Source: an uncultured Nitrososphaerota archaeon | Lineage (GTDB): Archaea; Thermoproteota; Methanomethylicia; Culexarchaeales; Culexmicrobiaceae | Reading direction: 5' to 3' | NCBI GenBank assembly: GCA_964497155.1 | Contig: CAZCCB010000001.1 | Location: 32,766 to 96,765 of the forward strand | Length of the DNA: 64,000 nucleotides | In this document: positions 4,149 through 19,343 of the stretch, in pieces | Layout: each line of letters opens with the position of its first letter | Numbering within the stretch: the first letter of the stretch is position 1 | Notes under the pieces: model-generated | Database searches by the model: none | What the model saw: only the letters and a program-made list of their open reading frames with translations | What the model was told of the DNA's origin: nothing | Translations under genes and position numbers: made by a program

Positions 4149-4210
4149 TCTTTTTCTTTACAATTAATTTTACGTACAATTTAAATAATTGATTTCATCT
4201 AATTAGCTAG

Positions 4211-4639
4211 GTGAATTTAATGCCAATTGCAATTAAGGTTAGAGATGTTATGGATAAAAATGTATTCCTCGTTGAAGCTAATGAACCAGTAATGAAAGCA
4301 TTACAAACAATGATTGAGAAAGGTGTTTGGTCAGTAGTAATTACCGATAAAGGATTACCAGTAGGTGTAATTACTGAGAGAGACATTTTACGTAGATGTA
4401 TAGTTAAGGGTCTAGATATCAATAAATGCACCTGTAAAGAAATAATGTCAAGCCCATTAATAACAATAGGTCCAGACCAACCATTAGGTGATGCATGGAC
4501 AATAATGACTGAGAAGAAAATAAGAAGAGTGTATGTCGTAGAGAAAGGGAAAATTATTGGAAGAGTAACACAAACAACTCTATTCAATAAACTTTTAGAA
4601 TTAGTATTAGCATTAAGCTCAATCAAATATACATTGTAG
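4211..4639 (+). CDS. CBS-domain pair protein
   Basis: Two CBS-like segments (VMDKNVFLVEANEPVMKALQTM..., GVITERDILRR..., ...VYVVEKGKIIGRVTQTTL). Confidence 0.65.
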   Translation: MNLMPIAIKVRDVMDKNVFLVEANEPVMKALQTMIEKGVWSVVITDKGLPVGVITERDILRRCIVKGLDINKCTCKEIMSSPLITIGPDQPLGDAWTIMTEKKIRRVYVVEKGKIIGRVTQTTLFNKLLELVLALSSIKYTL

Positions 4640-4711
4640 AAGTGTCGCCCCGCTGACCGAAGCTGGATCATCGATATAAATGTAATCTCACCAGCTTGCG
4701 AGAGCGGGGCG
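4640..4711 (-). ncRNA. candidate archaeal H/ACA guide sRNA (single hairpin)
   Basis: GC-rich island in an AT-rich intergenic region. Minus strand reads 5'-CGCCCCGC/TCTCGC/AAGCTGG-[24-nt apical loop starting UGA and ending GAUGAU, K-loop-like]-CCAGCUU/CGGUCA/GCGGGGCG-ACA-CU-3'. It has an 8-bp lower stem, a 6+6-nt internal loop (pseudouridylation pocket), a 7-bp upper stem and an ACA box immediately 3' of the stem. Confidence 0.5.
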
Positions 4712-4767
4712 GGCTCAGACTACCTACCAATCATCACTATTCAGAGTCGCCTGAGCTCCTCACAGCC
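4712..4767 (-). ncRNA. candidate box C/D sRNA (2'-O-methylation guide)
   Basis: Minus strand reads 5'-GGC-UGUGAGGA(C box, 6/7)-GCUCAGGCGACU(12 nt)-CUGA(D')-AUA-GUGAUGA(C', perfect)-UUGGUAGGUAGU(12 nt)-CUGA(D)-GCC-3'. It has a terminal GGC/GCC stem and canonical 12-nt guide spacings. It is about 56 nt long, GC-rich and intergenic. Confidence 0.65.
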
Positions 4768-4843
4768 AATCTATAATCCATAAAATTCAAATTTATTTTT
4801 GTTTAAATATCACCCTAAACTAAAATTATATGGAGGTTTATAA

Positions 4844-6220
4844 TTGGAAATTAAATATGAATTATTAAATGCAGTTGAAAGTAATTTTAATGAATTAATA
4901 GAGTTATTTCAATCAATAATCAAGATAGATACATCAAATCCACCTGGAAATGAAGTCAAATTAGCAGAACATCTCTATAATGTTTTATCGAGAGAGGGAA
5001 TAAATTGCGAAATAATTGAATCAAGCCCTAATAGAGGTAATATTATTGCAAAAATTAATGGTGAGAGCAATAAGAGACTAATGTATCTCTCACATTTAGA
5101 TGTAGTTCCAGCCCAAAATCCAGAATTATGGAAATATCCACCATTCTCAGGATACATTGAAGGCAATTGGATTTATGGTAGAGGTGCTATTGACTGTAAA
5201 AGCATGGTTGCATCAATGCTCTACTCCCTCATAATATTAAAGAGATTAAATATTAAACCAAAATTTACCTTAATATTTGCCTCAACTGCTGATGAAGAAA
5301 TGGGTGGAAGAGTGGGGTTAGGATGGCTAATTGAACATTATCCTGAAAAGGTTAAGGCTGAATACGTAATTAATGAAGGTGGAGGTCTACCATTAAAATT
5401 AAAGGAGAAACATTTAGTCTACTTAGTTGATGTGGCTGAGAAAGGTGCATGCTGGATTAAGGTTAAGTTTAAAGGAAGAAGTGGACATGCATCAATACCT
5501 CAATTTAAGGATAATGCACTAATTAGACTTGGAGAAGCAATAATAAGGATTTCTAAATTTAGAGTTCCACCATACTATGTTGAAGCTGTAAAGATCCTTA
5601 TTGAGGAACTCTTAATTCTTCAACTTGGATTTAAGGGGAAGTTAATTTCAAAATTAATTATGAGCCCGATTGGAGAATTAATTCTATCAAGAATGGAGAA
5701 AAATCAACCTGAATTCACTTCATTTTTAAAGGCAATTACTAGAATGACTATGACTCCAACCATAGTTAAGGGTGGAGTTAAAGAAAATGTAATTCCAAGT
5801 GAATGCGAATTAACCATTGACTGCAGAATTCTACCTGGCCAGGATGAAAAATATGTTATTAAGATGATCAATAAGGTATTAAGTGGAATTAGTGGTTATG
5901 AAGTTCATATTAAAACTTGTTCTCAAGCATCAAGTTCACCCATAAATAAGTTCTTTCTCAACTCAATTGAATCGACAATGAAAACTATAATTCCAAATTA
6001 TAATGTTAAATTAGCTCCATATATACTTCCAGCATCTTCAGATAGTAGATATTTAAGAAGGCTTGGAGCAATAGTTTATGGTTTCGCACCATTAAATCCA
6101 GAAATTGATTATAGGGAAATTATGGGATTAGCTCATGGAGTCAATGAAAGAATTGATATTGAAAGCTTAAAAGTAATGTGTAAGTTCTTTACACTACTTC
6201 CATGTAAAATTGGTGCATAA
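4844..6220 (+). CDS. M20 family metallopeptidase (ArgE/DapE/CPG2-like deacylase)
   Basis: Metal-ligand motifs of the M20 family are present: SHLDVVP, GRGAIDCKS and ADEEMGG. 458 aa with a dimerisation-domain-sized insert. Confidence 0.7.
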   Translation: MEIKYELLNAVESNFNELIELFQSIIKIDTSNPPGNEVKLAEHLYNVLSREGINCEIIESSPNRGNIIAKINGESNKRLMYLSHLDVVPAQNPELWKYPPFSGYIEGNWIYGRGAIDCKSMVASMLYSLIILKRLNIKPKFTLIFASTADEEMGGRVGLGWLIEHYPEKVKAEYVINEGGGLPLKLKEKHLVYLVDVAEKGACWIKVKFKGRSGHASIPQFKDNALIRLGEAIIRISKFRVPPYYVEAVKILIEELLILQLGFKGKLISKLIMSPIGELILSRMEKNQPEFTSFLKAITRMTMTPTIVKGGVKENVIPSECELTIDCRILPGQDEKYVIKMINKVLSGISGYEVHIKTCSQASSSPINKFFLNSIESTMKTIIPNYNVKLAPYILPASSDSRYLRRLGAIVYGFAPLNPEIDYREIMGLAHGVNERIDIESLKVMCKFFTLLPCKIGA

Positions 6221-7259
6221 AATGATAAAAATTGATGGGTCAATTGGAAGCGGTAGTGGAACTATATTACGCCTATCATTAGCATTCTCAGCTATTCTCA
6301 ATGAGGAACTCCACATATTTAATATTAGAGCTAAGAGAAGTCCATCAGGATTGAGACCTCAACACCTCAAAGCAGTTTTAACTGCAGCTAAAATCTGTAA
6401 TGCTAAAGTTAAAAATGCAAAAGTTGGAGCAAAAGAATTATGGTTCAAACCTAATGGAATCAGAGGTGGAAAATTTAAAATTGAAATTGGAACTGCTGGA
6501 AGCATTCCAATGCTATTTTTAACAGTGCTTCCAATATCAATTTTCGCTGATAAACCAGTTGAAATTCAAGTATCCAAAGGTGGAACTGATGTTCATAGAT
6601 CTCCAACAATAAATTACCTTAAGTATATTCTACTACCGGTCTTAAGATTAATGAATATTCATGCCGAAATTGAAGTTAGAAAATATGGTTATTATCCTAA
6701 AGGTATGGGAGAAGCTATTCTAAAAGTCAATCCAACTAAAAGTATTAAGAGTATAGATTTTTCTAATAGAGGTAAAATTCTAAGTATAAATGGAATTTCA
6801 ATTTGCACTTTCCTTAAGGATCGTAGAGTAGCTGAACGTCAAGCTAAATCGGCAATTAATTATTTAAAATCTAAAGGGATTGAATGTAGTCAAATAAAGA
6901 TACACTATGATTTTTCCAATCCACTTCAAAAGGGAAGCTCAATAGTATTATGGGCTGAAACTGAATGTAAATCTAGAATTGGTGCAGATGCTATCGGAGC
7001 CATTCGCAAGCCCAGTGAAGTCGTTGGTAGAGAGGCTGCTGAAAAACTCTTAATTGAACTAAATTCTAAAGCCTCAATTGATACACATTTAGCTGACATG
7101 TTAATTCCATACATGGCATTTGCGAAAAATTCTTCAATCTATACTGTTAGGTCAATTACTGAGCACATATCAACTAATATTAGGCTGTGTGAATCAATAT
7201 TAGGTGTAGAGTTCAAGGTAAAAAGAATCGGTAAAATTTACAGAGTAGAGCGAAGATAA
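6210..7259 (+). CDS. rtcA: RNA 3'-terminal phosphate cyclase
   Basis: N-terminal IDGSIGSGSGTILRLSLAFSAI matches the RtcA signature. HLADMLIPYMAFA lies near the C-terminus. The likely true start is the ATG at 6222, two nt after the upstream stop. Confidence 0.8.
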   Translation: MVHKMIKIDGSIGSGSGTILRLSLAFSAILNEELHIFNIRAKRSPSGLRPQHLKAVLTAAKICNAKVKNAKVGAKELWFKPNGIRGGKFKIEIGTAGSIPMLFLTVLPISIFADKPVEIQVSKGGTDVHRSPTINYLKYILLPVLRLMNIHAEIEVRKYGYYPKGMGEAILKVNPTKSIKSIDFSNRGKILSINGISICTFLKDRRVAERQAKSAINYLKSKGIECSQIKIHYDFSNPLQKGSSIVLWAETECKSRIGADAIGAIRKPSEVVGREAAEKLLIELNSKASIDTHLADMLIPYMAFAKNSSIYTVRSITEHISTNIRLCESILGVEFKVKRIGKIYRVERR

Positions 7260-7261
7260 CG

Positions 7262-8698
7262 GTGAAAGCAATGTTCAAAGTAAGAATTCGAGGAATATAT
7301 GCTACTGCATTAACCAAATTATTACTTGATGAGGGATTTGAAATAGTTCAGCCATCATATGTTATTGAAGAGAGATTTCATTTAAATTCAAATGATCTAT
7401 CAAAACCATTGGATATAGACATATTTGATAGAAGTGATAGACAGGGAGTATATGCTTTATGCTTAAATAATGCTGATAATGCATTAAAATCTGTTCTTCA
7501 AGAAAAATTACTTGATGTCATAATTAGAAAGTGGAAAGTTCAAGTTGGAGGGGTATATAAGGGTTTAATTAAACATGTAGATTTATCTGGTAAAACTGCA
7601 TTTGTCCAGCTAACTAATGATGTTATAGGCTTACTTTATGCATCAAAACCTATTCCTAAGGATTGTAGAGAAATAGTAGTTCAAGTTGAAAGGAAAAATT
7701 TTGGGAGTAAATGTCCAATATTAACCGATCAAATTAAATTAGCAGGAAAATATGCAGTATTAATACCTCAAAATCAAATTAAGATTAGTAGTAAAATTAA
7801 GGATTTAGATAAAAGAAATTATCTATTAAAATTAGGTTTAAAATTTAAACCAGAAAATTGGGGAATTATTTGGAGAACTGCTGCAGCCAATGCTTCAGAA
7901 GATGAACTTAAACAGGAAATAGAATCTTTACTTGAAAAGCTAGATAAAATTTATAAGTCAATTAATGAAGTTGAAGCTCCCTCATTAATACTTAATGGAC
8001 AAACATTATTAAATATAGAATTTCCATATATTTCAAAGAAAACTTTAGATGAAATTAGAAGTAAAGTTGTTCCAACAATTCCTGGACATCACTTCTATAA
8101 AGCATTTAGCTCTGAATTATCAAGTTCAGTTGATATGGCTGAATCATTACTCAGTAAAGGTTTTTCAATTAATGATGTTTATAAGAAATTTATGGAAGAA
8201 TTTTGCTTGCATTTACCATGTAAAGGTGAATTAATACAAATTAAGCATGTAAAGCTTAGCGGTAGGGAAATTAATCTAGGGAAAGCATTAATTGAATACT
8301 TTAATGAGAAAACTGGTGAAATAAAGTTAAAGAGAATAATTCATAGTAAAGGATTTTATAATGGAATTAATGTTGAAAAGAATCCGGGAGATTACGCTAT
8401 AACTGAAACTAAAATTGGTGAGTGGTATTTAAAGACAACCTATTATTCAAATAACGGTGAATCTAAGGGAGTATATATAAACATTAACACCCCCATAGAA
8501 CTTTACTCAACATGCATAAGATATGTTGATTTAGAAATTGATGTATGCATTACTCGTGAAGGTAAAGTTCTGATATTAGATGAAGATAAGCTTATGAAGT
8601 CCTATGAATTAGAATTAATTTCAGATAAATTATTGAATAAGGTTAAGTCGGTTGTGAATCATATTTTAAATGAGATTGTTCCTAAAATTTCTCTCTAA
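7262..8698 (+). CDS. FAU-1-like ribonuclease (archaeal RNase E/G-like, DUF402 family)
   Basis: N-terminus MFKVRIRGIYATALTKLLLDEGFEIVQPS resembles archaeal FAU-1/RNase E-like proteins. About 478 aa. Confidence 0.55.
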   Translation: MKAMFKVRIRGIYATALTKLLLDEGFEIVQPSYVIEERFHLNSNDLSKPLDIDIFDRSDRQGVYALCLNNADNALKSVLQEKLLDVIIRKWKVQVGGVYKGLIKHVDLSGKTAFVQLTNDVIGLLYASKPIPKDCREIVVQVERKNFGSKCPILTDQIKLAGKYAVLIPQNQIKISSKIKDLDKRNYLLKLGLKFKPENWGIIWRTAAANASEDELKQEIESLLEKLDKIYKSINEVEAPSLILNGQTLLNIEFPYISKKTLDEIRSKVVPTIPGHHFYKAFSSELSSSVDMAESLLSKGFSINDVYKKFMEEFCLHLPCKGELIQIKHVKLSGREINLGKALIEYFNEKTGEIKLKRIIHSKGFYNGINVEKNPGDYAITETKIGEWYLKTTYYSNNGESKGVYININTPIELYSTCIRYVDLEIDVCITREGKVLILDEDKLMKSYELELISDKLLNKVKSVVNHILNEIVPKISL

Positions 8699-18124: not shown

Positions 18125-18847
18125 TTAGTCAATAATTTTTAATTCAACAATTTCGCCGCCACAAAACTTAACAGTATATTCACCAGCCATTTCAGCAGTC
18201 TTAATTAAATTTTTCCTGGATATTCCAGGTACTCCGCAAGTAATTATTAAAATATTTTTAGTTTCATTTGTAATTTTAGTTAATTCTGAATCTCTATGAG
18301 GATAGAGATTAATAATTTTTTCACGATCAGCAATCACTGGCTGTTTAGTAATTCTCCTCTTCTTATCACCAATACCCCAAAACTCCTCTCCTTCTTTAGA
18401 CCATCTTAAGATTATTGGTTCAACAATTTTATTGTAATCATATGCTCCAATTGAAATTTGAGTTAAAATTGAGACTATATTGTATACATCAACTGCACAA
18501 TTAATTCTAGGCAAGCCTTTTCCACGTAAAATTCTTCTAATCAAAGCTTCAGCTGAAGGTCTCTGCTTAGTAGGATCAATTTTAACTCTCCAATAAAAGT
18601 CTCTATAAGCCCTAATTATAGGCATGTCCTTTAAAGTTTTTAAATTAAAATTATTTCTCACCCAATTTTCCACACGTTTAATTTCACTTAAAAGTTCACT
18701 ACAATAATTCATTGAATTAACATTTCTTATTAAAGCCGCACCAAGATATAAATTCTCAAATTTAGCCTTAATATCACTGCTAATCTCAATTAATACCATA
18801 TATAGCACCAAATATTTTAAGCTAAAAATAGAATTAAAACTTAACAC
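18125..18847 (-). CDS. B3/B4 tRNA-binding-domain-like protein
   Basis: About 240 aa; N-terminal IEISSDIKAKFENLYLGAALIRNV resembles stand-alone B3/4 domain proteins. Confidence 0.4.
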   Translation of the reverse strand: MLSFNSIFSLKYLVLYMVLIEISSDIKAKFENLYLGAALIRNVNSMNYCSELLSEIKRVENWVRNNFNLKTLKDMPIIRAYRDFYWRVKIDPTKQRPSAEALIRRILRGKGLPRINCAVDVYNIVSILTQISIGAYDYNKIVEPIILRWSKEGEEFWGIGDKKRRITKQPVIADREKIINLYPHRDSELTKITNETKNILIITCGVPGISRKNLIKTAEMAGEYTVKFCGGEIVELKIID

Positions 18848-18914
18848 TTAAAATTCTAAGCATTCAAGAATTCTTTCAATTCTACTTAACCTATTCACAT
18901 GATTAGGTAATCGT

Positions 18915-18976
18915 GGGGCTCAGTTCTGGCGTCATTCTTCATCAAAATTGGTAATACCAGCCCTCTTCATCGCCCC
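18915..18976 (-). ncRNA. possible box C/D sRNA (non-canonical boxes)
   Basis: GC-rich 62-nt intergenic island. Minus strand reads GGGGC-g-AUGAAGA-(12 nt)-CCAA-UUUUG-AUGAAGA-(12 nt)-CUGA-GCCCC. It has a 5-bp terminal stem, two identical AUGAAGA C/C'-like boxes with 12-nt spacers and a canonical D box. Confidence 0.35.
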
Positions 18977-19037
18977 GATAAATAGTGTAATATTCAAATT
19001 TAAACTTAACTAATTAATTCATTTGAGGTGAAAATTA

Positions 19038-19343
19038 TTGAATTATATGGTTGAAATTATAGTTAAAGAGGTTAGGGGTTATTGTGCATGTAATTATAAG
19101 ATTGGAGATAAATTTGTAATTGAAAGATTTTACATTAAGTCAAATCAGCAATCAAAAATTTGCATTCATGCACTTTCATCAATGCTAACATTACTTTCAA
19201 AATTTCTAGCAGGAGTTTCAGCAAAAGATTTGGGTATAGGTGAAGTTGATGACATAGGTTATTTGCAATGTCCAGATCCCGGAAAACCATATACTAAAGG
19301 TGGAACAGTAATTTTTGAGTTAAGGAGAATTAAATTGAATTAA
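19038..19343 (+). CDS. small conserved protein, TIGR04076-like
   Basis: 101 aa with CxC...C...CPDPG pattern and C-terminal GGTVIFELRRI, reminiscent of the TIGR04076 family. Confidence 0.35.
   Translation: MNYMVEIIVKEVRGYCACNYKIGDKFVIERFYIKSNQQSKICIHALSSMLTLLSKFLAGVSAKDLGIGEVDDIGYLQCPDPGKPYTKGGTVIFELRRIKLN

Follow-up and report, generated by a model that had tools for sequence, protein, structure and literature searches.

The stretch of archaeal DNA considered here (64 kb of contig CAZCCB010000001.1 from an uncultured Nitrososphaerota archaeon, hereafter the window, to which all coordinates refer) contains a gap of 204 nucleotides (nt) between a CBS-domain gene (4211-4639, plus strand) and the gene of an M20 peptidase (4844-6220, plus strand). 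The window is AT-rich, with a background of 32% GC, and a GC-rich island of 125 bases lies in the gap; the island core is the highest-GC 50-nt stretch in the whole window (0.60 vs. 0.32). The minus strand of the island bears two guide modules, a box C/D element and an H/ACA hairpin. Very probably, they constitute one small-RNA (sRNA) gene in which C/D and H/ACA guides are fused, and all three guides appear to be directed to a stretch of about 50 nt in 23S rRNA beside the catalytic center. A first-pass annotation made from the sequence alone had described the gap with its GC-rich island, a 56-nt C/D element with a terminal stem, C, D′, C′, and D boxes and two 12-nt guides, and an adjoining H/ACA hairpin with an 8-bp lower stem, a 6+6 internal loop, a 7-bp upper stem, a kink-loop (K-loop), and an ACA box about 14 nt away. 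All these features are indeed found at their places, as described below.

Two guide modules without a spacer

The box C/D module occupies 56 nt (4712-4767, minus strand, as are all features of both modules) and is recognized from its sequence, from Rfam matches, from a descriptor search, and from the alignment with a second lineage represented by the locus L005. Read from 5′ to 3′, its layout is GGC/(U)GUGAGGA/GCUCAGGCGACU/CUGA/AUA/GUGAUGA/UUGGUAGGUAGU/CUGA/GCC. The terminal stem is formed by GGC (4765-4767) and GCC (4712-4714), the latter directly abutting the lower stem of the H/ACA hairpin; the middle pair of the stem, G-C in the window, is A-U in L005, which is a compensatory change. The C box GUGAGGA (4757-4763) departs from RUGAUGA at position 5, where it has G for U. 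This G faces position 2 of the D box CUGA (4715-4718; sequence and L005 alignment), giving a G.U pair in the window and a G-C pair in L005, whose D box is CCGA. The deviant C box and D box explain each other because the C-box G pairs with D-box position 2 in both lineages, and the UGAGG/CCGA arrangement is what we take to be a kink-turn (K-turn) of the U4 small nuclear RNA (snRNA) type.

Both guides are 12 nt long, and 11 of the 12 nt are the same in L005 in each case: in the D′ guide GCUCAGGCGACU (4745-4756) only the base beside the D′ box varies, and in the D guide UUGGUAGGUAGU (4719-4730) only the distal base. The D′ box CUGA (4741-4744), likewise supported by the L005 alignment, and the C′ box GUGAUGA (4731-4737) together form a K-loop and are separated by the 3-nt spacer AUA (4738-4740), which is AAA in L005. 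The module thus has the structural features of an archaeal C/D RNA, namely C and D boxes capable of forming a K-turn on a terminal stem, a D′/C′ K-loop, and guides of 12 and 12 nt. A regular-expression descriptor of this arrangement gives one match on both strands of the 64 kb and none in 200 dinucleotide shuffles.

The H/ACA module is a single hairpin of 69 nt (4643-4711), identified by sequence, Rfam matches, folding, and a descriptor, with the layout CGCCCCGC/UCUCGC/AAGCUGG/U-GA...GA-U loop (24 nt)/CCAGCUU/CGGUCA/GCGGGGCG/ACA. In the lower stem, CGCCCCGC (4704-4711) pairs with GCGGGGCG (4646-4653) over 8 base pairs (bp), or 9 if an optional U-A pair is counted, and these strands are invariant in both lineages; the ACA box (4643-4645) follows the stem directly and lies 14 nt from the pocket-closing pair. 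The pocket consists of a 5′ strand UCUCGC (4698-4703) and a 3′ strand CGGUCA (4654-4659), i.e., 6+6 nt compared with 7+6 in L005. The upper stem is built from AAGCUGG (4691-4697; 4667-4697 together with the K-loop, whose 3′ GA-U lies at 4667-4669) and CCAGCUU (4660-4666, also seen in the L005 alignment), and its 7 Watson-Crick pairs are continued by U.U, G.A, and A.G to give a 10-layer GA stem. The fold belongs to the 10/5/9 or 10/6/8 class. Behind the ACA box, a tail CUUCU (4638-4642), which reaches into the stop codon of the convergently oriented CBS gene, is identical in L005, though the sequence beyond it is unrelated.

In a survey of archaeal H/ACA RNAs, 10 layers were counted in all crystal structures and in 14 of the 15 productive Pyrococcus folds, and the distance from the closing pair to the ANA box was 14-15 nt, with pocket strands of 5-11 nt (PMC4652768); the hairpin agrees exactly with these published functional constraints. 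It folds at −32.8 kcal/mol (z = −4.6), and none of 200 shuffled sequences is equally stable. A descriptor composed from the published rules (lower stem of 7-10 bp, pocket strands of 5-9 and 4-8 nt, 10-layer stem with tandem G.A, ANA at 14-15 nt) has its sole match in the window at 4643-4711 of the minus strand, while shuffled windows yield 0.16 loci each and 10 random 64-kb sequences of island composition yield none. The sole C/D match and the sole H/ACA match of the window adjoin each other without a spacer.

A 154-aa open reading frame (ORF; 4207-4671, minus strand) runs antisense to the CBS gene and extends into the H/ACA hairpin. Though almost certainly spurious, this ORF could be mis-annotated as a gene over the 3′ end of the sRNA.

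Conservation of the tandem and matches to RNA families

Syntenic loci were found in L009, a near-same strain whose sRNA region is identical to that of the window, and in L005, L006, and L011, which represent one second lineage. In the latter, the M20 peptidase is 62% identical, the tandem is kept, and the CBS gene is absent. Between L005 and the window, 50 of 56 columns are identical in the C/D module and 62 of 70 in the H/ACA module; outside the apical loop, this amounts to 95 of 102 positions (93%), compared with 36-37% in the 60 flanking columns on each side. Beyond the single variable base of each guide, the changes fall in the C′/D′ spacer, in the loop interior, in the 5′ pocket strand, which acquires an extra base, and in the D box (U to C), all of them places at which the model tolerates change. 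The interior of the apical loop has diverged, UGA...GAUGA being retained, and U.U is replaced by U-A in layer 8 of the GA stem. The junction between the two modules has zero nucleotides in both lineages. The tandem is conserved as a unit while its flanks are randomized, and the archaeal C/D and H/ACA geometry proposed in the first-pass annotation is supported for both modules, which conform to the structural definitions of their classes and have persisted together in a second, clearly diverged lineage.

A metagenome scan with the pattern C′ box/D guide/D box returned the same two lineages and no further ones, and beside M20 homologues of 52-58% identity the synteny is lost and no sRNA is found. 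Culexarchaeum and Methanomethylicia contain the only named relatives of the window M20 peptidase, with an identity of about 51%, and an exact-sequence look-up of this peptidase gave no protein record. Directly downstream of the M20 gene, a gene for RNA 3′-phosphate cyclase (RtcA) and one for an RNase E/G-like + DUF402 protein (6210-8698, plus strand) form a cluster that is syntenic with the sRNA in both lineages; that this cluster is linked to sRNA end processing is pure speculation.

The first-pass annotation had proposed a search with the archaeal C/D and H/ACA covariance models of Rfam. In a permissive search of 321 nt, with filters relaxed and matches taken to E ≤ 10, snoPyro_CD matches full-length over 4712-4767 of the minus strand (27.6 bits, gathering score 45, E = 6.6e-4 on 321 nt), followed by a run of archaeal sR* C/D families, and the archaeal H/ACA family Pab160 matches full-length over 4643-4711 (29.6 bits, gathering score 47.4, E = 0.0037 on 321 nt). 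All of these scores lie below the gathering scores, which is expected for a new guide since the families are largely guide-defined, and we regard the matches as supportive, short of decisive. RF00065, the composite Pyrococcus snoR9/Pab21 family, is absent from the Rfam matches at E ≤ 10, and no Pab91 family appears among the matches of the permissive search.

As to other identities, the covariance models give the island no tRNA, signal recognition particle (SRP), or other family match, and ARAGORN finds no tRNA in the window, so the alternative assignment that the first-pass annotation had named as one possible refutation does not emerge. As identities of the island, a fragment of a tRNA or of SRP RNA, a terminator, and the 154-aa antisense ORF were each considered and rejected. 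Whoever would see here a non-functional GC-rich sequence that arose by chance, or a fragment of a tRNA, SRP RNA, or rRNA, could point to the lack of any Rfam match at gathering score; yet no tRNA or other family matches, the descriptor counts exceed those of shuffled sequence, and the strong selective conservation effectively refutes the chance origin, which leaves this explanation a negligible probability.

It could also be supposed that the C/D module alone is functional and that the hairpin is its 3′ stabilizer or terminator, or a terminator of the CBS gene, resembling an H/ACA RNA by chance. The hairpin abuts the CBS stop codon, its stems lack covariation, and its Rfam score is sub-threshold, all of which would suit such a role. 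In L005, however, there is no CBS gene, and the hairpin is nevertheless kept along with the GA pairs of the K-loop, the pocket bases, the ACA box, and the 5-nt tail. Moreover, a generic hairpin needs neither an exact 10-layer GA stem nor a 14-nt distance to ACA, nor a unique perfect pocket target in helix 93 of 23S rRNA, at what is by inference a verified Pyrococcus pseudouridine (see below). A hairpin of this generic kind is accordingly very improbable.

Several results weigh against the fused guide RNA as a whole. At gathering thresholds, Rfam has no match anywhere in the window, and when the search covers the whole window, the E-value of the C/D match is 0.13 and Pab160 is unlisted at E ≤ 5. 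Covariation has to be judged from two distinct sequences and comes down to a single compensatory pair in the C/D stem, the H/ACA stems being invariant and hence uninformative. In the predicted fold of the naked RNA, the D box and the 3′ half of the terminal stem are taken up by pairing with the D′ guide. Finally, no oligo-T terminator is found 3′ of the tandem.

Predicted guide targets in and around helix 93 of 23S rRNA

All target tests were performed on the rRNA of relatives as a proxy: the rRNA operon of Haloarcula marismortui, taken from its megaplasmid (12 kb searched), the seven-species 23S alignment from Dennis et al. (2015), and two sequences, L051 and L052. L051 is an archaeal 23S rRNA, and L052 is a complete rRNA operon from a hot-spring metagenome with 4525 sense positions of 16S and 23S rRNA. 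Both were found by a protein-database search with a translated hypothetical 23S segment, which returned 21 ORFs, none of the window's lineage. At least 21 clusters in public protein collections (P0139-P0159) are in fact translated archaeal 23S rRNA, helices 90-95, in the forward frame; such spurious protein calls serve as handles to rRNA contigs, and it is they that gave L051 and L052.

The H/ACA pocket predicts a target 5′-(U)GACCG-U-N-GCGAGA-3′, with G.U pairs allowed: CGGUC of the 3′ pocket strand would pair with GACCG on the 5′ side of U, and UCUCGC of the 5′ strand with GCGAGA on the 3′ side of U-N. A wobble-tolerant form of this pattern has one match in the 12-kb H. marismortui operon, AGACCG-U-C-GUGAGA in helix 93 of 23S rRNA, and one match in L052, which is also in helix 93. 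The pattern carries about 18 bits, and by our estimate the chance expectation is about 0.02 per rRNA set. The archaeal large-subunit (LSU) rRNA consensus of Rfam reads UUUAGacCGuCGuGAGaCAG at helix 93, in agreement with the pocket, and GACCGUCGCGAGA, present in the 23S rRNA of Pyrobaculum calidifontis (Pca), Thermoproteus tenax (Tte), and Sulfolobus acidocaldarius (Sac) and in L052, forms perfect 5+6 Watson-Crick pairs with it. Methanopyrus kandleri (Mka), Mma, Iho, and H. marismortui have a GUGA variant of the GCGA-type helix-93 loop. In these rRNAs of relatives, the bipartite pairing GACCG-UC-GCGAGA leaves U-N unpaired, and the target U is alignment column 2867, i.e., Escherichia coli U2593. 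From this pairing, helix 93 of 23S rRNA is the likely target of the H/ACA pocket, which we hold with good confidence.

Helix 93 of Pyrococcus abyssi contains two pseudouridines, 2685, which is guided by Pab91 and was verified in vivo as well as in vitro, and 2697. Position 2698 of P. abyssi, often modified in eukaryotes, corresponds to E. coli 2606 according to Dennis et al., and from the offset of 92 we infer that P. abyssi Ψ2685 equals E. coli 2593. By the same arithmetic, the pocket described here would serve the Pab91 site.

Outside archaeal rRNA, a 16-mer GACCGTCGTGAGACAG that is the same as in 23S helix 93 recurs in unrelated phage-like contigs of IMG/VR (L014, L017, L021-L026, L031-L034, L040, L041, L045, L047). 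There it sits in hairpin-like contexts GG(N)CC...GG(N)CC, in several cases with a second similar copy about 40-60 nt off, and it could be a repeated phage RNA or DNA motif mimicking helix 93. At the ends of L016, L018, L019, L030, L042, L046, and L049, which are IMG/VR contigs from 33000092xx-33000093xx, the 16-mer is fused to CCCTATAGTGAGTCGTATTA, the complement of a T7 promoter; these copies look like a linker or adaptor left in assemblies. Scans of viral contigs for archaeal rRNA gave phage, adaptor, and eukaryotic matches to the helix-93 16-mer and no archaeal rRNA. One IMG/VR "viral" contig, L013, carries at 6900-7949 (minus strand) a shortened bacterial-type small-subunit (SSU) rRNA, of which about 1050 nt align end-to-end with the bacterial model of 1533 nt and which matches the archaeal-type search sequence at its 3′ end.

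For a C/D guide, a target would be an rRNA or tRNA segment complementary over at least 9 bp, with a Watson-Crick pair at N+5; an rRNA target obeying the N+5 rule was also the test by which the first-pass annotation would have been refuted. On the proxies L052 and L051, the C/D guides have their best or second-best candidate sites close to the same helix and beside the H/ACA target. In L052, the top site of the D′ guide is AGCCGCCUGAGG in 23S rRNA, rank 1 of 4525, with 10 of 12 Watson-Crick pairs, 8 of them contiguous, and with N+5 paired, and for the D guide, the site UCUACCUGUUGG shares second place by score among the 4525 positions. From the U predicted to become pseudouridine, it is 41 nt in the 3′ direction to the D′ site and 22 nt to the D site, and the two sites are 19 nt apart; the chance that both should fall so near the predicted pseudouridine is about 0.002, a rough post hoc figure derived from the L052 ranks. 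When both strands of L051 are searched, the D guide finds its best site at the homologous UCUACCUACUAG, where 8 Watson-Crick pairs are contiguous. In 200-nt segments around helix 93 from seven archaea, the best site of the D guide is at columns 2885-2896 in five and the second-best in one, and that of the D′ guide is at columns 2904-2915 in four, these columns ranking second in the remaining three. Across the seven-species 23S alignment, the 8-mer CGCCUGAG is confined to the D-guide site. The N+5 nucleotides are columns 2889 and 2908; in M. kandleri, U2889 and G2908 are predicted to be methylated under the guidance of sR80 (D′) and sR3 (D), respectively (Dennis et al. 2015).

A 23S target of the C/D guides is thus favored somewhat over its opposite, and the pairing itself speaks against it in several respects. 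No perfect 11-12-nt match to either guide exists in any of the proxy rRNAs; for D′, the best pairing has 10 of 12 Watson-Crick pairs and an internal mismatch, and for D, it consists of 6-8 Watson-Crick pairs supplemented by G.U. Shuffled guides match the H. marismortui rRNA just as well as the real ones. In L052, 17 of 100 shuffled guide pairs attain a combined pairing score as high as that of the real pair, which is insignificant alone, so it is co-location, and not pairing strength, that carries the argument for the C/D targets. The D guide, rich in G and U, pairs promiscuously when wobble is allowed, and an rRNA target is lacking for about one third of the archaeal C/D sRNAs (PMC4644070). 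These are the grounds for a reading in which both modules are real while the C/D guides act elsewhere, on tRNA or another RNA, or have an orphan or chaperone-only role, the proxy sites being chance near-matches. We consider this doubtful, since both guides are conserved at 11 of 12 nt between lineages whose intergenic DNA is otherwise randomized, the two sites are co-located, and their N+5 positions are exactly the two methylation sites predicted in M. kandleri.

Within the window, the complements of the guides have no second occurrence, and no 8-9-mer of the guides is present in the supplements of Dennis et al. (2015). A scan of genome contigs for the D′ target followed by the D target gave one chance match, in a protein-coding region of Pontibacter; later evidence favors the reverse order, with the D target 5′ of the D′ target, for which viral contigs gave no match. 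If the 23S assignment is right, ACUACCUACCA and GUCGCCUGAGC are expected in the organism's own 23S rRNA immediately 3′ of helix 93, some 7-10 nt from each other, and the pattern ACTACCTACCA-N(5-12)-GTCGCCTGAGC about 17-20 nt 3′ of GACCGTCGCGAGACAGG.

A second C/D candidate of the window can serve as a positive control of these predictions. It lies at 18913-18976 of the minus strand, in the gap between the ORFs 18125-18847 (minus) and 19038-19343 (plus), and the whole-window Rfam scan gives there an sR1 match of 25.4 bits (18918-18974, minus strand). The layout is GGGGC-GAUGAAGA-GGGCUGGUAUUA-CCAA-UUUU-GAUGAAGA-AUGACGCCAGAA-CUGA-GCCCC, with a terminal stem of 5 bp, identical C and C′ boxes (GAUGAAGA), a degenerate D′ box CCAA, and guides of 12 nt each. 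Its D′ guide forms 11 Watson-Crick pairs and one G.U with UAAUACCAGCUC of L052 16S rRNA, and the partner of its D guide is GUCUGGUGUCAG, which lies 21 nt upstream of UAAUACCAGCUC; both are the top sites in the L052 operon, and they give a near-perfect match to the 530-loop region of 16S rRNA. The same 21-nt spacing is known from a conserved double-guide group acting on 16S G491/A512 (PMC4644070). From the match of the second candidate to 16S rRNA, it follows that the organism uses canonical C/D guides and that L052 is a reasonable rRNA proxy.

The two sRNA genes also have an upstream sequence in common. A putative TATA-like, A/T-rich promoter element (AUAAAUUU/AAATTTGAAT), read from the sequence, lies at 4785-4796 of the minus strand, at about −18 to −29 when counted from the G that begins the terminal stem of the C/D module, in a region common with the divergent M20 gene. 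The 10-mer AAATTTGAAT is found at 4785-4794 and at 18992-19001 (both minus strand), i.e., at about −18 to −27 and about −16 to −25 of the two sRNA genes. Four copies are present in the window compared with 1.7 expected, the other two being located within ORFs. Judging by its position, AAATTTGAAT may be a common sRNA promoter element.

Proposed mechanism and comparison with known systems

According to the mechanism we propose, the A/T-rich promoter, shared divergently with the M20 gene, would drive synthesis of a transcript of about 125-130 nt carrying the two spacer-less guides. The two modules would have to be co-transcribed, because zero nucleotides at the junction leave no space for a second promoter, and the lack of an oligo-T run together with the conserved CUUCU tail after ACA makes trimming to the boundary of the ribonucleoprotein (RNP) likely. 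L7Ae would bind at three K-motifs in all: on the C/D half, it would occupy the K-turn and the C′/D′ K-loop, with Nop5-fibrillarin assembling there, and on the H/ACA half the K-loop, with Cbf5-Nop10-Gar1 on the lower stem and ACA. The pocket would pair with 5′-GACCG-U-C-GCGAGA-3′ of helix 93, and the unpaired U (E. coli U2593) would be converted to pseudouridine. Each 12-nt guide would direct 2′-O-methylation of the nucleotide opposite its fifth base, counted upstream from D′ or D. Most likely, the methylation guides pair at E. coli 2615 and 2634, which lie 22 and 41 nt 3′ of U2593. In this way, the three guides would act during large-subunit assembly on about 50 nt comprising helix 93, the strand after it, and the helix that comes next. 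Transcription, protein binding, the modifications, and a lasting fusion of the modules are all inferred from sequence.

It is quite possible, though the lesser chance, that the guides are real and co-transcribed and are then cut apart into two unrelated RNPs, in which case adjacency would reflect genomic economy and co-targeting would be a coincidence. Archaeal sRNAs are often processed out of longer transcripts (PMC3849170), Pab21 of Pyrococcus exists in vivo both in a composite and in an H/ACA-only form (PMC2377435), and the C/D targets were assigned from proxy rRNAs with imperfect matches. Such cleavage, however, would have to occur exactly at the helix boundary, given the zero-nucleotide junction in both lineages, and the rank-1 and joint-second sites of the two guides lie within 45 nt of an independently predicted pseudouridine, for which chance would account with the rough probability given above. 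That the RNA stays fused, forming one particle in which the fibrillarin and Cbf5 machineries share a single docking on nascent 23S rRNA, is a rather unlikely outcome.

If the composite particle exists, it would make one pseudouridine (2593) and two 2′-O-methyls (2615, 2634) within 42 nt of helix 93 and the strands adjoining it. It would be an archaeal counterpart of the eukaryotic composite small Cajal body-specific RNAs (scaRNAs), and for the peptidyl-transferase region it would act as an assembly chaperone with three prongs. Convergence of the guides on helix 93 and its neighbors would, moreover, provide a natural test of guide RNAs as local folding chaperones and of whether two RNP types can operate from one RNA. 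Irrespective of this, predicted C/D and H/ACA guides are added for an uncultured AT-rich archaeal lineage without RNA annotation, whose relationship to Culexarchaeia and Methanomethylicia is no more than distant. A scan for GC-rich islands combined with published geometric rules reveals such genes in AT-rich metagenome-assembled genomes where the Rfam thresholds give nothing.

Among the closest known RNAs is Pab21/Pf1-snoR9 of Pyrococcus (RF00065), where the H/ACA guide lies at the 5′ end of a transcript annotated as the C/D RNA snoR9 (PMC2377435, PMC4652768). As in the present tandem, H/ACA and C/D motifs are carried by one archaeal transcript, but in Pab21-snoR9, the H/ACA motif is 5′ of the C/D motif, whereas here C/D precedes H/ACA. 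Pab21 guides modification of 16S U891, the present H/ACA module is aimed at 23S rRNA, and the hosts belong to different phylum-level lineages. With the order reversed and neither sequence similarity nor a covariance-model match, the tandem resembles RF00065 in function and is not a member of it; it would be a second, independent archaeal fusion of methylation and pseudouridylation guides, with a module order opposite to that in Pyrococcus.

By its H/ACA half, the RNA is comparable to Pab91 of P. abyssi, which is likewise a single K-loop hairpin with a 10/5/9-type fold and guide pairing of six layers on the 5′ side and five on the 3′ side; the present hairpin shares the class listed for Pa91-L2685. 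Both would address the same column of helix 93 (E. coli U2593), an equivalence that is functional and drawn from the offset arithmetic. The pocket here is Watson-Crick complementary to the GCGA-type helix-93 loop (Pca, Tte, Sac, L052), and the present H/ACA module is fused, whereas in the literature examined, a fusion of Pab91 to a C/D sRNA is not described.

By its C/D half, it resembles sR3 and sR80 of M. kandleri (Dennis et al. 2015), which have the same symmetric C-D′-C′-D arrangement, 12-nt guides, and two targets no more than 100 nt apart. The predicted N+5 positions coincide with U2889, assigned to the D′ guide of Mka sR80, and G2908, assigned to the D guide of Mka sR3. In M. kandleri, however, the two positions are served by two sRNAs, each of which pairs one of them with another site, whereas here one sRNA would serve both; in addition, the C box is GUGAGGA instead of the RUGAUGA of archaeal double-guide sRNAs.

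Eukaryotic scaRNAs such as U85 combine both guide types in one RNA and direct methylation and pseudouridylation at neighboring target nucleotides. They share with the archaeal tandem the presence of both guide types on one molecule, without any evolutionary link being implied; U85-type scaRNAs are localized in Cajal bodies, act on snRNA targets, contain two H/ACA hairpins, and have a different domain arrangement. Taken separately, both modules described here are ordinary members of their classes, and the fusion of H/ACA and C/D guides in Archaea is already known; what may be new, as read from the sequence and its candidate targets, is one fused RNA with three guides converging on a single rRNA neighborhood of about 50 nt.

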